From contig JBMOMW010000056.1 of the NCBI GenBank assembly GCA_049325255.1, positions 3,137 through 67,136 on the forward strand: a stretch of DNA of 64,000 nucleotides, read 5' to 3'. Below, one piece after another: positions 3,812 through 36,640 of the stretch. The DNA comes from Pseudomonadota bacterium. GTDB taxonomy: Bacteria > Pseudomonadota > Alphaproteobacteria > UBA11222. The notes under the pieces are model-generated. The model was not told the DNA's origin. It made no database searches and saw only the letters and a program-made list of their open reading frames with translations. The first letter of the stretch is position 1; the number at the start of each line of letters is the position of its first letter. The position numbers and the translations under genes are program-made.

Positions 3812-3917
3812 GGCTGTGATTGGGTCACTTTATTATTGTGGAATTTGCCTCAGTTTCGCCCCATATGCAGGTTGGAATGTGCAGGCCCTACTCATAAAAA
3901 CGCAAAGGACGATATCC

Positions 3918-4337
3918 ATGAAGCTCCGGCAATTGACTATAGCGGCAGGGCTTGCTTTCGTCATGCTGCTTGGCCCGTCCCTGGCATATGCCGAAACCGC
4001 CGCAAGTGTCAAAGACATACCCCTTGATGATGCCGGTTTGCGGTCATTGGACCAGAAACATTTGCGTCTGGCGCGCAAGGCCGGGACGGTGTGTGTGCAT
4101 CTGTCGCCCGGCGGCGTGGTGCGCAATGGTTCCGCACCCATAGCCCTGGATGGCTGTAATATCAGCCAGCTTGATCATCTGGTCGCAGAACAAAAAGATC
4201 CTGCATTATCGGCCTATCACCTGGCAATCCGGCCGGGCGAACGTTATGACCAGAACCGTTCGGCGCTGTATTGGCGCACGGTCCGCACCCAGTTGCTGGC
4301 AGACCATCCGGAATTAACCATGCCAGCCAATAAATAG
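3918..4337 (+). CDS. hypothetical secreted protein (signal peptide)
   Basis: An internal ATG at 3918 is preceded by AAGGA at -9. The N-terminus (MKLRQLTIAAGLAFVMLLGPSLAYA) looks like a Sec signal peptide. The 5' part of the tracked ORF (3543..) overlaps the MFS gene and is rejected. Confidence 0.5.
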   Translation: MKLRQLTIAAGLAFVMLLGPSLAYAETAASVKDIPLDDAGLRSLDQKHLRLARKAGTVCVHLSPGGVVRNGSAPIALDGCNISQLDHLVAEQKDPALSAYHLAIRPGERYDQNRSALYWRTVRTQLLADHPELTMPANK

Positions 4338-4569
4338 ACTGGACGTTAGGGGAAATGGGTATTATACGCCGGACTCTGTAACTGATGGTGCTGTGGTGAA
4401 TATGATTTTTCTGTCCTCACGACGAAGAACGCTCATCGCGCTCGAAACCCGGGCGCGACGTTAGGCGCGCGCCACACCCTCCCCCGTCCATCTGCCAATG
4501 GACATTCAAAGCGGAAGGCGCGGTAGCGCGCTGAAGTGTTTTCATACACCTTCGCCGGGGAGTTTTATC

Positions 4570-5118
4570 ATGATCGATTATTGCTGCGAGCGGCCCGTGG
4601 ATGCGGGCCAGATTGAACATTTGCTGGACAGGGCCTTTGGGCCCGGGCGCTTTGCCAAGACCGCGTACCGGCTGCGTGAAGGGACGGATTTCATTCCCGA
4701 ACTGTCGCTGGTGGCCTGGGAAGATGGCGTCATGCGCGGCGCGCTGCGCTACTGGCCGGTCGAAATTGGTAATTTGCGCACGCCTGCCCTGTTGCTGGGC
4801 CCGCTTGCCGTGGACCCCGATCAGCGGGGCCGGGGCATTGCCCTGCGCCTGATGGAACTGTCGCTGGCGAAAGCAGCCGGGATAGGCCACAGGATTGTCG
4901 TTCTGGTGGGCGATGAACCCTATTACGCGCGCGTTGGATTTTCTGCGGCAGCCACGCGCGGCTTGCGCATGCCAGGCCCTGTTGACCCCGCCCGGCTGCT
5001 TGCCTTTGAGCTGGTTCCTGGCGCACTGGACGGCGTATCCGGCTTGATCCATAAGGCCAGTGTAGCGGGTGCAGGCGCGCAGTCCGCCCAGATGGCAAGG
5101 CTTGCCGCAGGAAGTTGA
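4570..5118 (+). CDS. GNAT family N-acetyltransferase
   Basis: Acetyl-CoA binding-like segment (LGPLAVDPDQRGRGIALRLM). About 180 aa from the MIDYC start. Confidence 0.6.
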   Translation: MIDYCCERPVDAGQIEHLLDRAFGPGRFAKTAYRLREGTDFIPELSLVAWEDGVMRGALRYWPVEIGNLRTPALLLGPLAVDPDQRGRGIALRLMELSLAKAAGIGHRIVVLVGDEPYYARVGFSAAATRGLRMPGPVDPARLLAFELVPGALDGVSGLIHKASVAGAGAQSAQMARLAAGS

Positions 5119-5145
5119 GGGCAGGCGTTGCGGCTGAACCGCGGC

Positions 5146-5901
5146 TTATATTCCGTGTCCGGAGCGTTTATCCAGTTTCGCATGCAAAATCTGATGCGTC
5201 GTGCATTCTTCCGATATCGAGCATTCACCACAGGCGAAATGCTTGGCCTTGCGCACATTGGTGAACGAAACATGGGCGCCCGTGACAATAACGCCCTGAT
5301 CTTTTATTTTTTGCAATGTGCGCGAGAAAGTTTCCAGCTCCATGCGCAACCGCGACGCGATAAGCGTCTTGGTGTAGGGCAGTTCGAACCCATGCGGATC
5401 AAAATTATACAGTACACATATCTTTTGCAGATAACAGGCCACGATCTGCGCCGCAGACATGGTGGTCAGGTGCTCTGCCTCCATTTCGGCGCCGCGCAGC
5501 CGGTCCGACAGGTCCATCATCAGATGCGCGGCTAAATTGCCAAGATCCTTCAGATGTTCGCGCAGCCATGTGATGGGGATTTCCAGCATGGACACGTCGT
5601 CCACGGCGCGCGCATTTGAGAGATGAATATTCTGACCCGAGACAATTTCGTCTGCGTTGACGCCATCCCCGGCAATCAGAATATTGCTCGTCACCTCATG
5701 TCCGTCCGGCGTTTCGCGGAAGATCTGCACACTGCCCCGGCAGATCACGTAAAAATGCGTGATGGCGTCGCCATGCATGAAAAGAAATCTGCCGCGCCTG
5801 CATTGGCCGATCCGGCTGTTGCGAATCAGGAGCGCGCCTTCTTCCTTGCTCAGATTTGAAAAAAGCGGAAGCGCCTTGAGCGTTTCGACAGCGACGGTCA
5901 T
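5146..5901 (-). CDS. Crp/Fnr family transcriptional regulator with a C-terminal Cys-containing extension
   Basis: N-terminal cNMP-binding domain and C-terminal HTH (YTKTLIASRLRMELETFSRTLQ). ATG at 5901 is preceded by GAGG. An extra C-terminal tail of about 40 aa contains CGECSISEEC. Confidence 0.75.
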   Translation of the reverse strand: MTVAVETLKALPLFSNLSKEEGALLIRNSRIGQCRRGRFLFMHGDAITHFYVICRGSVQIFRETPDGHEVTSNILIAGDGVNADEIVSGQNIHLSNARAVDDVSMLEIPITWLREHLKDLGNLAAHLMMDLSDRLRGAEMEAEHLTTMSAAQIVACYLQKICVLYNFDPHGFELPYTKTLIASRLRMELETFSRTLQKIKDQGVIVTGAHVSFTNVRKAKHFACGECSISEECTTHQILHAKLDKRSGHGI

Positions 5902-32461: not shown

Positions 32462-32549
32462 GCCCAGGTGGCGGAATTGGTAGACGCACTAGCTTCAGGT
32501 GCTAGCGCTCGCAAGGGCGTGGAAGTTCGAGTCTTCTCCTGGGCACCAC
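32462..32549 (+). tRNA. tRNA-Leu (anticodon CAG), class II, CCA encoded
   Basis: GCCCAGGTGGCGGAATTGGTAGACGC...CTTCAGGT anticodon loop...long variable arm...GTTCGAGTC...CCTGGGCACCA. Confidence 0.9.
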
Positions 32550-32674: not shown

Positions 32675-33286
32675 ATGAATGTTGATCTGCATATTGGCGA
32701 TCTGCCGGATAATATCTCTTTCGGGAATTGCGTCGCCATCGACACCGAAACCATGGGCTTGAACCCCCATCGCGATCGGCTGTGCCTGGTGCAGCTTTCG
32801 GCGGGCGACGGCACGGCGCATCTGGTGCGCTTTAATCTGGGCGATTATAACGCCCCCAATCTGGTGCGCCTGCTGGCCGACAAAAATGTGATCAAACTGT
32901 TTCATTTCGCCCGCTTTGATGTGGCCATGCTGAAACATTATCTGGGCGCGGACACCGCACCCATCTATTGCACCAAGATCGCCTCAAAGCTGGTGCGCAC
33001 CTATACCGACCGCCACGGCCTGCGCGATGTGGTCAAGGATCTGCTGGGCCACGAGGTTTCCAAACAGCAGCAAAGCTCGGACTGGGGCGACCCGAACCTG
33101 AACGAGGCGCAGTTGAAATATGCTGCATCCGATGTGCTGCACCTGCACGCGCTAAAAGCCAGACTGGACGACATGCTGGCCCGCGAAGGCCGCACCGCCA
33201 TGGCCAAGGCCTGCTTCGACTTCCTGCCGGTGCGCGCGGAACTTGATCTGCTCGGCTGGCCGGAAATGGATATTTTTTCACATTAA
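32675..33286 (+). CDS. 3'-5' exonuclease, small RNase D-like (DEDDy family)
   Basis: Exo I motif (AIDTETMGL), Exo II (LFHFARFD) and Exo III (YAASDVLHLH). 203 aa. Its last about 50 nt are duplicated after the R-M islet. Confidence 0.75.
   Translation: MNVDLHIGDLPDNISFGNCVAIDTETMGLNPHRDRLCLVQLSAGDGTAHLVRFNLGDYNAPNLVRLLADKNVIKLFHFARFDVAMLKHYLGADTAPIYCTKIASKLVRTYTDRHGLRDVVKDLLGHEVSKQQQSSDWGDPNLNEAQLKYAASDVLHLHALKARLDDMLAREGRTAMAKACFDFLPVRAELDLLGWPEMDIFSH
33230..33285 (+). repeat. direct repeat DR-L flanking the R-M islet (the 3' end of the exonuclease gene)
   Basis: GTGCGCGCGGAACTTGATCTGCTCGGCTGGCCGGAAATGGATATTTTTTCACATTA. Repeated at 35513-35566 with a 2-nt indel and one substitution. Confidence 0.85.
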
Positions 33287-33306
33287 CGGGATAGGGAAGC
33301 AGGTTT

Positions 33307-33702
33307 TCACTTGAGAAACCTGGATAGTGTATTCCGCAACACATTAGGCTCCCTGGTCTCGCATTCCCAAATCGTCAACACCTCCCAACCCGCCTCCGCC
33401 AGCGCCACGCGCGTTGCGCCATCCCGGGCCCTGTTGCGCGCAATCTTGGCTTGCCAGTAATCACGATTGGTTTTGGGTGTCCGCGCCCCCCGGCGGCAGT
33501 CATGACCATGCCAGAAACAGCCATGCACAAAGATGACCTTGCGCCGGGATGCGAAAACCAGATCGGGTTTCCCCGCAAGGTCTTTACGGTGCAGCCGGTA
33601 GCGGCAGCCCATGGCGAAGGCCATGCGGCGCACGGCCATCTCCGGTGCTGTGTCTTTGCTTTTCACCGCCTGCATCGTCCGGCGCCGCACGAGGTCAGTC
33701 AT
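33307..33702 (-). CDS. vsr: very short patch repair endonuclease
   Basis: Conserved FVHGCFWHGH motif and TIWECE. 131 aa. 4-nt overlap with the upstream endonuclease gene. Confidence 0.85.
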   Translation of the reverse strand: MTDLVRRRTMQAVKSKDTAPEMAVRRMAFAMGCRYRLHRKDLAGKPDLVFASRRKVIFVHGCFWHGHDCRRGARTPKTNRDYWQAKIARNRARDGATRVALAEAGWEVLTIWECETREPNVLRNTLSRFLK

Positions 33703-34268
33703 TCACCTTCTTCGTCTGAGCCGAGTCCAAGCATAACGGAGTGGTATTTCGACAAACGCGCAAAATGCGCATCCATAGCTGCGGCTATCTGGTTGGAATT
33801 TTTAACTACGAGAAAATGACCAACGATTTGTGCGTAGTGGTCCGCCTGACGCGGTAAACGAAGCTCTACGGTCTTTTTTTCAGCAATTTCATCGTCGCTC
33901 ATAACCTGCACTATTTTTGATGGTTCAGGAACGCGGGTTACTGAAACCGGTTGTAATGGAACTGTGCCATTCATCAAACGTGAATGAGGGTTGAAGTGAT
34001 GAAAAAGCATTGCTTCAAGCGGGTTCATTTCAGCCTTATCCATCACTGGATATTCCCAAACAAAAGCAATTTCCCAAACATCTATTTGTCGATTGGCAAT
34101 TACGTCTGAGCGCGCGGAAGTGAGATGACGTTGAACCCGCTGCCTGATTCCGTCACTTGACTGCCCAACATATACGGGGGTGTTGTCCAAATCGCAAAGC
34201 ACATATACGCCGATCTGCGATGTCAGCGTTCTTACCGCGTTCCTCCTAAAGGCAAAACCTTTAGCCAT
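33699..34268 (-). CDS. GIY-YIG nuclease, putative type II restriction endonuclease (Eco29kI-like family)
   Basis: GIY-YIG core (GVYVLCDLDNTPVYVGQS...IRQRVQRH). Sandwiched between the m5C methyltransferase gene and vsr in one operon. Confidence 0.6.
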   Translation of the reverse strand: MAKGFAFRRNAVRTLTSQIGVYVLCDLDNTPVYVGQSSDGIRQRVQRHLTSARSDVIANRQIDVWEIAFVWEYPVMDKAEMNPLEAMLFHHFNPHSRLMNGTVPLQPVSVTRVPEPSKIVQVMSDDEIAEKKTVELRLPRQADHYAQIVGHFLVVKNSNQIAAAMDAHFARLSKYHSVMLGLGSDEEGE

Positions 34269-34269
34269 G

Positions 34270-35418
34270 TCATGCGGCCCGCTGGTTGCCGTTAACCCGA
34301 TATGAGATTATGGGTTCAAATATACGCTCTGTCAGATACCGCACCACGGGAACAGCAACGCCGTCGCCGGTCAGATGATAGGCTTCGTTATAATTCGTGG
34401 GCAGTTTGTATGCCTCCGGCAGCCCCATAAGGCGGGCTGTTTCCCGGCTCGAAATAAGTCTCGATTTTACAGACTTTCCATCAACGACCATAATAAGTTG
34501 GCGGCTGGATCCACCTCCAGGTGTCCGCAAACAGCCCGCCATATTATCAAACCTGACTTCCGCACGCTGCACTTTGTGGCCTTTTTCATCAGGTCGCGTA
34601 CGCTTGTAAATTGTTCCTACAATACGGCCATTTGCCGCTTTAGCTTTCTCCACTTTCGCTATGTTCGCGGCACTCATCATAGCAAGTAACCGCCGTGTCT
34701 CATCTGCGCTATGCCAGTGTGCACCCACAGGCTGATCCTCAATTATATCCTCAAACCGGGTATTGCGTATTGGAGGTGTGGCCATAGCCCACCAAATCCA
34801 ATTTTTCTTGACGAGGGTCGCCAATTCTCCATAAGCCTTTCTAAGCGCATTCGTATGCCATAGGGGAGATGGGCTAAGGCTAATCAGATGGCGCGGCACG
34901 TCAAGATCGCCGCGAACCGCAATGATAAACAGCCGGGGGCGGGATTGGGGAACGAAAAGCGCCGCATCAATAATGACAGCGCCGCAACGATATCCGGCAT
35001 GCGCAAGTGCAGAACAAATGGCGGCGAAATCCTTGCCACCATGCGAGGTGAGCGTTCCACAAACATTCTCGATAGCGATGATTCGGGGCGCGCGGCCCTC
35101 ATTACCCAACACCTGTATCAGTTCCCAGAACGGCCAGAACATTCCCGACCGATCACCCTTCAGCCCTGCGCCGCCGCCAGCAAGCGACAAATCCTGGCAA
35201 GGAAACGACGCCCAGGCCAGATCGCTTTGGCCGGGCAATTCCTGCGCCTTCAGAGCGCGAACATCCGCCGTTTTCAGAATGCCGTCATCGCCCCAGTTCT
35301 GGCGATATATACGGCTTTTCTTATGGTCGAAATCATTGGCGAACAGGCAGTTCCACCCGGGCCCAAGTCCCATTCGCGCCATGCCGCCGCCAGCAAAAAA
35401 TTCATAAAATTTACCCAT
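34270..35418 (-). CDS. DNA (cytosine-5)-methyltransferase
   Basis: Motif I (FAGGGMARMG), motif IV (FPCQDLSLAG), motif VI (ENVCG) and a C-terminal LTGDGVAVPVV. Start chosen at MGKFYEFFAGGG. Confidence 0.85.
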   Translation of the reverse strand: MGKFYEFFAGGGMARMGLGPGWNCLFANDFDHKKSRIYRQNWGDDGILKTADVRALKAQELPGQSDLAWASFPCQDLSLAGGGAGLKGDRSGMFWPFWELIQVLGNEGRAPRIIAIENVCGTLTSHGGKDFAAICSALAHAGYRCGAVIIDAALFVPQSRPRLFIIAVRGDLDVPRHLISLSPSPLWHTNALRKAYGELATLVKKNWIWWAMATPPIRNTRFEDIIEDQPVGAHWHSADETRRLLAMMSAANIAKVEKAKAANGRIVGTIYKRTRPDEKGHKVQRAEVRFDNMAGCLRTPGGGSSRQLIMVVDGKSVKSRLISSRETARLMGLPEAYKLPTNYNEAYHLTGDGVAVPVVRYLTERIFEPIISYRVNGNQRAA

Positions 35419-35512
35419 GGCCGTGATTCTGACATGATGCCTGGTTATCGTCAACATTATGTTCTTTTATTGTTCTAAATTTGACTGGTTTTTATGGTGC
35501 GATACAGAGGGG

Positions 35513-35566
35513 GTGCGCGGAACTTGATCTGCTCGGCTGGCCGGAAATGGATATTTTTTCGCATTA
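35513..35566 (+). repeat. direct repeat DR-R flanking the R-M islet
   Basis: GTGCGCGGAACTTGATCTGCTCGGCTGGCCGGAAATGGATATTTTTTCGCATTA. Would encode the same C-terminal peptide (...ELDLLGWPEMDIFSH) as the exonuclease gene end. Confidence 0.85.
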
Positions 35567-35626
35567 GTGTATGATTCGGTTTGATCAGACTGCGAGTGCA
35601 GCTTTACCCGATATGGGAAACCGATC

Positions 35627-36640
35627 TTGAGTGTAGAAAAGACAGTGCCTGAACAACTCCCTGCGCCTGCCCATTCCCCGGAACTGGCGGCGGCGCGCCG
35701 GGTGCTGGAAACCGGGGCGCGGGCGTTAGTGTCCATGGCCGAAAGGCTGGATGGGGCATTTATTACGGCGCTGGATATACTGGGCGCGGTCAGGGGCCGG
35801 GTGATCGTTACGGGTATGGGCAAGAGCGGCCATATCGCCCGCAAGATCGCCGCCACATTCGCTTCCACTGGCACGCCTGCGCAATTCATTCATCCGGCCG
35901 AGGCCAGCCATGGCGATCTGGGCATGATCACCCGGGCTGACGCCTGCCTGATGCTGTCCAATTCCGGCGAGACGCCAGAGCTGGGTGACATCATCGCACA
36001 TACGCGGCGTTTCGCCATTCCGCTGATCGGGATAGCGCGCAATCCAGACAGTACGCTGCTGCGCGCGGCGGATGTGGCGCTGGTATTGCCGCCAGCGCCG
36101 GAAGCCTGTCCGATGGGATTGGCGCCGACGACTTCGACGACCGCCTCACTGGCGCTGGGCGATGCGCTGGCGGTGGCGCTGATGGAGCGCAAGGGGTTTT
36201 CCGCTGATGATTTCAGGCTGCTGCATCCGGGCGGGCAGATCGGTAAATCCCTGTTGCGCGTGGGGGACATTATGCATACGGGCGACGCCGTGCCGCTGGC
36301 GCATCTGGATATGCCGATGAGCGAAGTGCTGATGGTGATGACCCAGCAACGCTTTGGCTGCGCCGGAATTATTGCGGATGATGGCAATCTGGCGGGCATT
36401 ATCACTGATGGGGATTTGCGCCGTCAAACCATCACCGGGGATCTGCTGCAAAAAACTGCGGCGCAGGTCATGACCAAAACCCCCAAAACCATTCATCAGG
36501 GTGCGCTTGCCGCCGAGGCGCTGGGATTGATGGCGGATAAAATCACCTGTCTGTTTGTCACTGCGGAATCTGCAACCGTTCCGCAGCCGCCCATTGGCAT
36601 TGTGCATATTCATGACTGCTTGCGGGCGGGCGTTATTTGA
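35627..36640 (+). CDS. kpsF: KpsF/GutQ family arabinose-5-phosphate isomerase
   Basis: SIS domain (VIVTGMGKSGHIARK) and tandem C-terminal CBS domains. TTG start as in the track. Confidence 0.8.
   Translation: MSVEKTVPEQLPAPAHSPELAAARRVLETGARALVSMAERLDGAFITALDILGAVRGRVIVTGMGKSGHIARKIAATFASTGTPAQFIHPAEASHGDLGMITRADACLMLSNSGETPELGDIIAHTRRFAIPLIGIARNPDSTLLRAADVALVLPPAPEACPMGLAPTTSTTASLALGDALAVALMERKGFSADDFRLLHPGGQIGKSLLRVGDIMHTGDAVPLAHLDMPMSEVLMVMTQQRFGCAGIIADDGNLAGIITDGDLRRQTITGDLLQKTAAQVMTKTPKTIHQGALAAEALGLMADKITCLFVTAESATVPQPPIGIVHIHDCLRAGVI

Follow-up and report, generated by a model that had tools for sequence, protein, structure and literature searches.

A 64,000-nt stretch of DNA (the window) was analyzed, in which three genes, all on the minus strand and encoding an m5C methyltransferase, a GIY-YIG nuclease and Vsr, lie between an exonuclease gene and kpsF. 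They form an insert that is bracketed by two copies of a direct repeat, and the features of the locus are listed below by window coordinate.

32675..33286, plus strand: exonuclease target gene, encoding a 203-aa DEDD-type 3'-5' exonuclease, RNase D-like, without HRDC domain (PF01612, E 1.6e-37)
33229..33285: left repeat copy, comprising the last 18 exonuclease codons plus two of the three stop-codon bases (end TCA CAT TA)
33286..33306: left junction and insert-specific spacer, A CGGGATAGGGAAGCAGGTTT
33307..33702, minus strand: vsr, very-short-patch T:G mismatch endonuclease, 131 aa (Pfam Vsr, E 3.5e-30; PADLOC Vsr, E 1.9e-24)
33699..34268, minus strand: GIY-YIG nuclease, candidate restriction endonuclease, 189 aa (PF01541, 32.3 bits, cut-off 22.6)
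34270..35421, open reading frame to 35457, minus strand: m5C methyltransferase (PF00145, E 5.9e-45; PADLOC MTase_II, E 2.4e-107)
35422..35509: insert-specific, AT-rich, non-coding leader 5' of the methyltransferase gene, and right junction
35510..35566: right repeat copy, leading on through the TAG stop codon and exonuclease-kpsF spacer of the native locus
35567..36640, plus strand: native downstream DNA, with a 60-bp spacer and kpsF/kdsD (35627-36640; NCBIfam KdsD/KpsF), then lptC, lptA, lptB and rpoN

Domain matches above cut-off bear out the three gene assignments of the original prediction, with TIGR00675 (141.6 bits, cut-off 100.65) and TIGR00632 (149.8 bits, cut-off 97.85) identifying the methyltransferase and Vsr, respectively. 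The methyltransferase displays motifs I, IV, VI and VIII (FFAGGGM, SFPCQDLS, ENV and QSRPRLF). Its true start is probably Met13 at 35421, yielding a protein of 383 aa, because homology to a related cassette in another organism (L162) starts there. Upstream, the leader (35422..35509) has no homology to empty sites, and a promoter-like site is present on the minus strand at 35454-35426. A single nucleotide separates the methyltransferase stop from the GIY-YIG start, and the GIY-YIG stop and vsr start overlap by 4 nt. The predicted GC heterogeneity was likewise confirmed: GC content is lowest in the GIY-YIG gene (46.7%), intermediate in the methyltransferase gene (53.7%) and highest in vsr (61.1%), compared with 58.4% for the window. 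The idea that GC3 marks vsr as an older resident is weakened by the same GC pattern in the related cassettes L162 and L163. A match of the methyltransferase to PADLOC DruM2 (E 3.7e-165) arises through methyltransferase homology only and Druantia type II was rejected; DruE, DruF and DruG are absent beside the methyltransferase gene, the insert consisting of three genes, none of them large. Exact-sequence look-ups of the 383-aa methyltransferase and of the exonuclease protein returned no match.

Domain model, fold and the catalytic residues Y, Y, R, E and N place the 189-aa protein in the GIY-YIG nuclease superfamily. It comprises a catalytic core (approximately residues 20-100) and a C-terminal three-helix domain, and residues Y22, Y33, G35, R44, H48, E85 and N100 are invariant across 54 homologues. 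The AF2 model (pLDDT 86.7) yields the UvrC N-terminal domain (nearest) and I-TevI as best fold matches, and the best sequence matches are repair nucleases, namely the UvrC N-terminal domain and Cho. The proposed resemblance to Eco29kI/Cfr42I was rejected at family level, since sequence similarity to these enzymes does not extend beyond the shared fold. More than 2000 homologues belong to the family. No characterized member was found in PDB, Pfam, NCBIfam or the PADLOC restriction-enzyme models, nor did literature searches on this GIY-YIG/Dcm/Vsr family yield one. Fusions that reveal a partner of the nuclease (“Rosetta stone”) were not observed, all representatives being 313 aa or shorter.

The direct repeat spans 57 nt with three mismatches and contains a perfect core of 46 nt (33234-33279 and 35515-35560), which occurs exactly twice in the 64,000-nt window, with zero matches expected (100 shuffles). 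Repeat spacing is 2281 bp, for an insert of ~2.2 kb. The third stop base in the left copy context is an A (33286) compared with the native G, and the exonuclease reading frame is intact despite the insertion; the right copy keeps its coding potential (AELDLLGWPEMDIFSH followed by a stop). Mismatches between the copies are all located at the insert-proximal ends, and both copies have TTT in common where the nearest relative (L001) carries TTC. An independently assembled Logan contig of 2295 bp (L171) corresponds to window positions 33250-35544 at 100% identity; as it begins within the left repeat core and finishes within the right one, both junctions are real. Inverted repeats were found neither at the insert ends nor as a core within the 57-nt repeat. 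Integrase, transposase and prophage genes are absent in or near the cassette, with the region from 29.7 to 40.3 kb otherwise containing housekeeping genes only. Near-identical direct repeats bracketing three co-directional genes, with neither a recombinase nor terminal inverted repeats, had thus been anticipated correctly.

Comparison with related genomes agrees with the earlier view of this islet as inserted DNA. Exonuclease orthologues in eight relatives (L001-L008) are 90-98% identical and have conserved neighbors. Seven of nine close relatives (L001, L002, L004-L008) harbor an empty site, in which the repeated sequence is present once and the exonuclease stop TAG is followed by 40-120 bp and kpsF, and the downstream gene order of the window is collinear with theirs; L003 and L009 have other genes downstream of the exonuclease stop codon. 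The three cassette genes are encoded at 0 of 67 exonuclease loci, and at none of these loci is the gene end duplicated or other cargo bounded by it; recurrent integration at this position was rejected on these 67 loci. Targeting of a tRNA gene was also rejected: tRNA-Leu(CAG) (32462-32548) precedes the exonuclease gene, falls outside the repeat and keeps its position in empty alleles. A second occupied allele, on a contig of another metagenome (L080), has a left junction and spacer identical to those of the window. Relative to L080 and L164, nucleotide divergence of the window is 1.3-2.6% in the methyltransferase and GIY-YIG genes but 8-10.5% in vsr and 9.5% in the exonuclease gene. This mosaic divergence shows a later exchange of the methyltransferase-nuclease part only.

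Beyond this locus, an m5C methyltransferase of one subfamily adjoins the GIY-YIG gene in nearly all of 87 loci, with Vsr being optional. All partner methyltransferases share one alignable target-recognition motif; a mismatch between methyltransferase recognition domain and nuclease was considered, and the shared motif gave no argument against a cognate pair. The same three-gene cassette, at 76% nucleotide identity, is found after moaE in L162, where homology to the window ends at the ORF ends and the repeat is absent. Flanking repeats were detected only in the window and in L085 among ~60 loci scanned, and the repeat of L085 is a different sequence, ~220 bp of another methyltransferase gene. 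The closest GIY-YIG homologues (72-81% identity; L068, L074, L082, L086 and L088) reside in four-gene operons of the order methyltransferase-RE285-GIY-YIG-Vsr. RE285, a separate protein of 285 aa, aligns along its entire length with a PADLOC Type II restriction-enzyme model (E 3.6e-144), and has no match in Pfam, NCBIfam or PDB. Its presence in the operons of relatives, which the original prediction did not mention, makes it less safe to assume that restriction is the task of the GIY-YIG protein. The caution voiced in the original prediction, that sequence alone does not establish this role, was justified.

Restriction-modification (R-M) insertion with long target duplication is a class defined apart from site-specific recombination, with published criteria being R and M genes in the insert, a size below 20 kb, a repeat longer than 30 bp and no mobile-element genes (PMC2853133). 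Compared with the criteria of Furuta et al. 2010, the locus displays a single-copy alignment in relatives, a repeat >30 bp, an insert <20 kb and no mobile-element genes; the M component is clear, and R is the candidate GIY-YIG nuclease, while relatives carry a separate restriction-enzyme-model protein. Judged from these sequence features, the cassette would belong to this known, recombinase-free entry class. The repeat derives from the target, because homologous cassettes elsewhere lack it. The 2.2-kb unit entered inside the exonuclease stop codon, after TA, and ~57 bp of target was duplicated, leaving the exonuclease gene as well as the region upstream of kpsF intact. Spread among relatives would be explained most simply by host homologous recombination, either through allelic replacement via the flanking genes or through excision between the two repeats and subsequent Campbell-type re-entry of a circle with one repeat copy. 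Homologous recombination alone leaves the original event that made the duplication unexplained. The explanation as a whole, namely a recombinase-free three-gene unit with a 57-bp target duplication, a candidate Type II restriction role and spread by homologous recombination, is proposed with moderate confidence.

Two other modes of entry were weighed against this account. The initial suggestion, site-specific integration into the 3' end of a gene, would involve a recombinase encoded elsewhere for which the end of the exonuclease gene serves as att site, with the element bringing its own copy. The repeat indeed spans the 3' end of a gene, whose reading frame it restores, and differences at the insert-side ends are as in a crossover between element copy and host copy, but the same end pattern is equally expected of RecA-dependent recombination. 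Moreover, no integrase is encoded in or near the cassette, the repeat lacks an inverted-repeat core, the site is reused at 0 of 67 exonuclease loci, and absence of the repeat from the cassette in L162 and from ~58 other loci led us to reject it as an element-carried att site; this suggestion was not borne out and is highly improbable. Alternatively, the duplication might have been made in place, through staggered breaks ~57 bp apart, perhaps initiated by the cassette nuclease, that were filled in after a linear cassette had joined. This is the original idea behind the term “long target duplication” (PMC2853133), and TTT in both copies compared with TTC in L001 as well as the long flanking duplication of L085 at a different target would agree with it. 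However, no such mechanism has been demonstrated experimentally (PMC2853133), repeat differences cluster beside the insert rather than being scattered, and most family members are found without duplication, making this route extremely unlikely.

In the favored explanation, the methyltransferase would methylate one short GC-rich site, the GIY-YIG protein would cut that site when unmethylated, which would make it a Type II restriction enzyme from an uncharacterized family, and Vsr would repair T:G mismatches resulting from m5C deamination. A restriction role of the GIY-YIG protein is likely but unproven; it is suggested because a methyltransferase adjoins the gene in nearly all 87 loci and the catalytic residues are invariant, and because the GIY-YIG gene takes the position that RE285 has in plasmid methyltransferase-RE285-Vsr operons. 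Another interpretation, which we consider possible but rather unlikely, is that restriction is not the function of the GIY-YIG protein and that the methyltransferase is accompanied by a repair or accessory module of two nucleases, Vsr and a UvrC-like GIY-YIG protein. The cassette would then in effect be an orphan unit of Dcm-Vsr type, derived from a methyltransferase-RE285-GIY-YIG-Vsr operon by loss of the true restriction gene. The position of RE285 between methyltransferase and GIY-YIG genes in the nearest relatives speaks for it, as do the overlapping pairs in these four-gene operons (methyltransferase with RE285, GIY-YIG with Vsr), the best sequence and fold matches being repair nucleases, a Kozakia plasmid in which RE285 is frameshifted and the GIY-YIG gene intact, and two loci (L083 and L084) that harbor Vsr-GIY-YIG without a methyltransferase within ~3 kb. 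The nuclease is also consistently more conserved than its methyltransferase (for instance 81% versus 67% and 68% versus 55%), which is unusual for a restriction enzyme, and a marine clade vertically retains its methyltransferase-GIY-YIG pair beside ispG in the manner of dcm-vsr. Yet the one constant partner of GIY-YIG is the methyltransferase and not Vsr, which is missing from the pair of this clade, and Vsr in turn occurs without GIY-YIG in the plasmid methyltransferase-RE285-Vsr operons; most loci have no further nuclease candidate adjoining the methyltransferase-GIY-YIG pair.

Site depletion bears on the same question. In the marine clade, which keeps the pair at one locus, GGCGCC is found 8 times compared with 79 expected. 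C-to-T products are not overrepresented there, a pattern that favors selection through cleavage over decay by mutation and argues against a mere accessory role. In host DNA of the window, CCGCGG occurs 4 times compared with 33 expected and is the most depleted hexamer, with 0 sites in the insert. Depletion thereby nominates CCGCGG (window) and GGCGCC (marine clade) as candidate target sites, and other systems in the same genomes could be the source of these avoidance signals. Finally, the GIY-YIG protein might be a UvrC-like incision nuclease carried by m5C methyltransferases, which would perform dual incision together with Vsr at deamination-derived T:G and replace Vsr where it is absent, as in the marine clade; we regard this as decidedly doubtful. 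If true, it would describe a new, self-contained module for repair of m5C damage that travels with its methyltransferase. If the favored restriction role holds, the protein would represent a GIY-YIG restriction lineage of its own, the third after Eco29kI/Cfr42I and Hpy188I. Either way, the analysis flags a widespread, uncharacterized GIY-YIG nuclease family tied to one m5C methyltransferase subfamily, for which a restriction or an accessory/repair role is testable. The locus itself provides a clean case of R-M-type gene mobility without recombinase in an uncultured alphaproteobacterial lineage, with empty alleles, occupied alleles and the exact target duplication all documented for one site.

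Among known systems, R-M units with long target duplication (Nobusato et al. 2000; Furuta, Abe and Kobayashi 2010, NAR 38:2428, PMC2853133) are similarly small units without mobility genes, flanked by a direct repeat of >30 bp that is single copy in insert-free genomes, and with a GC content unlike that of the host; the repeat overlaps a gene 3' end here, as in the 46-bp cases of Haemophilus influenzae (PMC2853133). The present example differs in its host, an uncultured freshwater-type alphaproteobacterium, in a cargo that includes Vsr and a GIY-YIG nuclease of uncharacterized family and candidate role, and in its mosaic divergence with exchange of the methyltransferase-nuclease part.

The GIY-YIG Type II enzymes Eco29kI, Cfr42I and DraR1 (CCGC/GG, with m5C or m4C methyltransferases) share with the present nuclease a GIY-YIG core with the full set of key residues, small size (189 aa here, ~214 aa there) and pairing with a cytosine methyltransferase of ~380 aa; that their target is also the most depleted hexamer of the window is a hint only. 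Some CCGCGG systems listed in REBASE include Vsr (PMC10855626). Unlike these enzymes, to which it has no detectable sequence similarity, the present nuclease carries a separate C-terminal helical domain instead of core insertions, and the gene order is M then R. With E. coli dcm-vsr and other m5C methyltransferase-Vsr pairs the unit shares linkage of a methyltransferase to Vsr through overlapping genes, the accepted role of Vsr being repair of deamination damage, whereas here a GIY-YIG gene is placed between the two and the unit is an insert rather than a core gene pair. The nuclease core is best matched, in sequence and fold, by the UvrC N-terminal domain and Cho, the 3' incision nucleases of nucleotide excision repair. 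In contrast to UvrC and Cho, the present protein is a stand-alone polypeptide of 189 aa without UvrB-binding, EndoV-like and helix-hairpin-helix domains, and is linked to a DNA methyltransferase in nearly all loci.

The cassette consists of three tightly packed minus-strand genes enclosed by a direct repeat, of which the left copy forms the end of a resident exonuclease gene.

Features of the cassette and its flanks (window positions)
32675-33286: DEDD 3'-5' exonuclease gene, 203 aa (PF01612), its end being the left repeat copy
33229-33285: direct repeat, left copy, 57 nt, 3 mismatches between copies
33307-33702, minus strand: vsr, above the curated family cut-off
33699-34268, minus strand: GIY-YIG gene, above the curated family cut-off
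34270-35457, minus strand: cytosine-5 methyltransferase ORF, above the curated family cut-off
35510-35566: direct repeat, right copy, 57 nt

The repeat core, GCGCGGAACTTGATCTGCTCGGCTGGCCGGAAATGGATATTTTTTC, spans 46 nt without mismatch between copies and occurs exactly twice in the 64 kb, with 0 matches in 100 shuffles. A single nucleotide separates the methyltransferase stop from the GIY-YIG start, and the end of the GIY-YIG gene shares 4 nt with the beginning of vsr. The methyltransferase likely starts at Met13 (35421), since homology to the same cassette in another organism (L162) begins there. GC content is 46.7% in the GIY-YIG gene, 53.7% in the methyltransferase gene and 61.1% in vsr, compared with 58.4% for the window. 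Neither a recombinase gene nor terminal inverted repeats were found at the cassette. The original prediction thus holds for the direct repeats, the three gene assignments, the heterogeneous GC and the lack of mobility features. Beyond the right copy, the sequence continues into the native spacer, followed by kpsF/kdsD, lptC, lptA, lptB and rpoN.

Scanning the exonuclease protein against one genome per species yielded 67 loci, none of which encodes the three cassette genes. The eight closest belong to uncultured alphaproteobacterial MAGs (90–98% protein identity) and share the upstream gene with the window. Seven of these (L001, L002, L004-L008) have kpsF 40–120 bp beyond the exonuclease stop TAG, providing the empty sites with a single gene end that had been proposed as a check. 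Junction alignment assigns the right copy and everything downstream to empty-site sequence (TCG CAT TAG TGTATGATTCGG...), and the left copy and everything upstream to the native exonuclease gene. Insert-specific DNA starts with the third stop-codon base (TA/A CGGGATAGGG) and ends at ...ACAGAGGGGGT/GCGCGG (slashes mark the junctions). L080, a 1332-bp contig from another metagenome, shares the left junction of the window. Nucleotide divergence from the window in the exonuclease segment is 9.5% for L080, similar to the 8–11% for the empty-site loci L001 and L002; therefore, occupied and empty alleles coexist among species-level relatives. Synteny is lost directly after the exonuclease stop codon in L003 (6610-12609; exonuclease 96% identical) and L009; polysaccharide-type genes (encoding dehydratase-like, asparagine-synthase-like, TPR and AAA proteins) replace kpsF in L003, and its exonuclease gene end is not duplicated. 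A tRNA-Leu(CAG) gene (32462-32548) precedes the exonuclease gene by 126 bp and was ruled out as insertion target, as it lies outside the repeat and its spacing is conserved in empty-site relatives.

A public run that was assembled independently (Logan SRR32167792) contains a 2295-bp contig, L171, identical to window 33250-35544, which starts within the left and ends within the right repeat core. Hence both junctions are real and no artefact of the assembly behind the window. L171 comprises exactly the cassette, its two ends having 14 nt in common; a k-mer assembler is expected to produce just this from an insert between repeats, and a circular or tandem form would agree with it equally well.

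Homologues of the GIY-YIG protein number more than 2000, and 87 loci carrying one were gathered. In L162, the same three-gene cassette is located after moaE, its nucleotide homology to the window is limited to the ORFs (35419-33313), and no repeat flanks it. Among approximately 60 loci with enough flanking DNA, flanking direct repeats were detected only in the window, serving as positive control, and in L085. The latter repeat differs in sequence, spanning ~220 bp that correspond to the opening ~55 codons of a different m5C methyltransferase gene. Its copies (69-289 and 2317-2530), both truncated methyltransferase gene fragments, surround a methyltransferase-GIY-YIG cassette and include one 132-nt block with 128 matches. 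In none of the exonuclease loci is the end of the gene present twice. Judging from these comparisons, the repeat is a duplicated target and not part of the element. Together, L162, the repeat scan and the exonuclease loci argue against an element-borne att site reused by a trans-acting integrase, so that the proposed site-specific integration by machinery supplied in trans is unsupported and improbable.

All differences between the repeat copies adjoin the insert, leaving the 46-nt centre identical: the left copy ends in TCA CAT TAA versus TCG CAT TAG in the right copy, which itself starts with GGGGTGCGCGG versus native GGTGCGCGCGG. Such a pattern is expected from recombination within an identical core, where incoming DNA would carry a slightly diverged exonuclease gene end that would recombine with the resident copy. 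It fits a proposed cycle of excision by repeat-repeat recombination, transfer and re-entry via homologous recombination (PMC2853133). In-place duplication with silent changes afterwards may account for the same copies. Nucleotide divergence shows that the cassette has certainly undergone recombination. Relative to the occupied alleles L080 and L164, it amounts to 1.3–2.6% in the methyltransferase and GIY-YIG genes, 8–10.5% in vsr and 9.5% in the exonuclease gene, which points to recent exchange of the methyltransferase-nuclease segment only; vsr and the backbone of the exchanging lineages are much older than this shared segment. Divergence breaks near the GIY/vsr boundary, at about 33690-33820 (window 33307-34425 compared).

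Seven residues of the GIY-YIG nuclease (Y22, Y33, G35, R44, H48, E85 and N100) are invariant in 54 homologues. In its AlphaFold model (pLDDT 86.7), an N-terminal helix precedes the GIY-YIG core (residues 20-100), and three helices make up a C-terminal domain. The UvrC N-terminal domain was the sole hit when solved structures were searched by sequence (E 0.08 for the single sequence, 0.015 for the profile), and Foldseek likewise ranked UvrC first; the earlier designation as Eco29kI/Cfr42I-like is therefore valid at superfamily level only and does not extend to closer kinship. The family is compact: at a threshold of E 1e-30 it comprises 57 cluster representatives, none longer than 313 aa and none fused to a methyltransferase or Vsr. 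Public annotation of its members reads only "GIY-YIG nuclease family protein", and a literature search for the family found no paper.

Gene context leads us to favor, with some reservation, a true restriction enzyme. In nearly all loci the GIY-YIG gene adjoins an m5C methyltransferase of one subfamily, whose members have a common recognition-domain motif (RTR..Q.AE.RFD.IAGCLRT..GGSSRQ) even at 32–39% overall identity, and Vsr is frequent yet optional. A marine Rhodobacterales-like clade, in which IspG is 91–100% identical, harbors the methyltransferase-GIY-YIG pair at a single locus adjacent to ispG, with Vsr absent. On plasmids, the same methyltransferase subfamily occurs in [CopG]-M-RE285-Vsr operons, RE285 being a 285-aa protein, and the window GIY-YIG gene stands exactly at the RE285 position. 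Adjacency, optional Vsr, the marine pair and this position all count for a restriction enzyme. An accessory or repair nuclease, which we regard as rather unlikely, draws on RE285 itself, a full-length match to the PADLOC Type II restriction-enzyme model PDLC03501 (E 3.6e-144). RE285 accompanies the GIY-YIG gene in the closest relatives of the window (L068, L074, L082, L086, L088), in L103, in Sphingomonas pMEA05 and in a Kozakia plasmid, where RE285 is frameshifted; in RE285-bearing operons, M overlaps RE285 and GIY overlaps Vsr, as two separate pairs. Moreover, the nuclease is more conserved than the methyltransferase throughout, which is unusual for restriction enzymes, and in one locus pair (L083, L084) Vsr-GIY adjoins an IS element, and the surrounding ~3 kb contains no methyltransferase.

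Some details of these loci may be added. The marine pair lies at about 3860-5540 in metagenome contigs L107-L148 (methyltransferase 55–100%, GIY-YIG protein 68–100% identical). The RE285 gene is placed between methyltransferase and GIY-YIG gene in L068 (4144-5001) and L074 (4125-4982) and likewise in L082, L086, L088, L103 and plasmids CM003356 and NZ_CP014678; searches of Pfam, NCBIfam and PDB gave no RE285 match. The GIY-YIG gene of the Kozakia plasmid is intact beside the frameshifted RE285. Vsr-GIY spans 523-1656 in L083 and 2960-4093 in L084; the GIY-YIG gene is intact there, with 72% identity to that of the window, and a transposase-like ORF lies downstream.

Palindrome depletion offers hints only on specificity. 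CCGCGG is the most depleted hexamer palindrome in the host DNA of the window (outside 33286-35509), with 4 sites (5139, 16177, 45904 and 50172) versus 33 expected and none within the insert. It is less depleted in empty-site relatives (26 observed, 60 expected); six plasmids with RE285-type systems contain 22 versus 111 expected, and deplete many palindromes. GGCGCC is depleted ~tenfold in every species sampled of the marine clade (8 observed, 79 expected; Rhodobacterales controls 44 and 65). No excess of its C-to-T products was seen in this clade, pointing to selection and not deamination decay. Other systems in those genomes could also cause the depletion signals.

Furuta et al. (2010) described restriction-modification units of <20 kb that contain no mobility genes and lie between repeats of >30 bp, with a single copy where genomes lack the insert (PMC2853133). 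Published Haemophilus influenzae cases have 46-bp repeats overlapping gene 3' ends (PMC2853133). The cassette matches this class definition, with the GIY-YIG protein as candidate restriction enzyme, and its methyltransferase-nuclease-Vsr cargo is a known general type of arrangement, REBASE-listed CCGCGG systems with Vsr being mentioned in PMC10855626. New here are the host lineage and the question of what role the widespread GIY-YIG nuclease family has; the structure, real and well documented, is not categorically new and belongs to a class of restriction-modification gene mobility that is already known.
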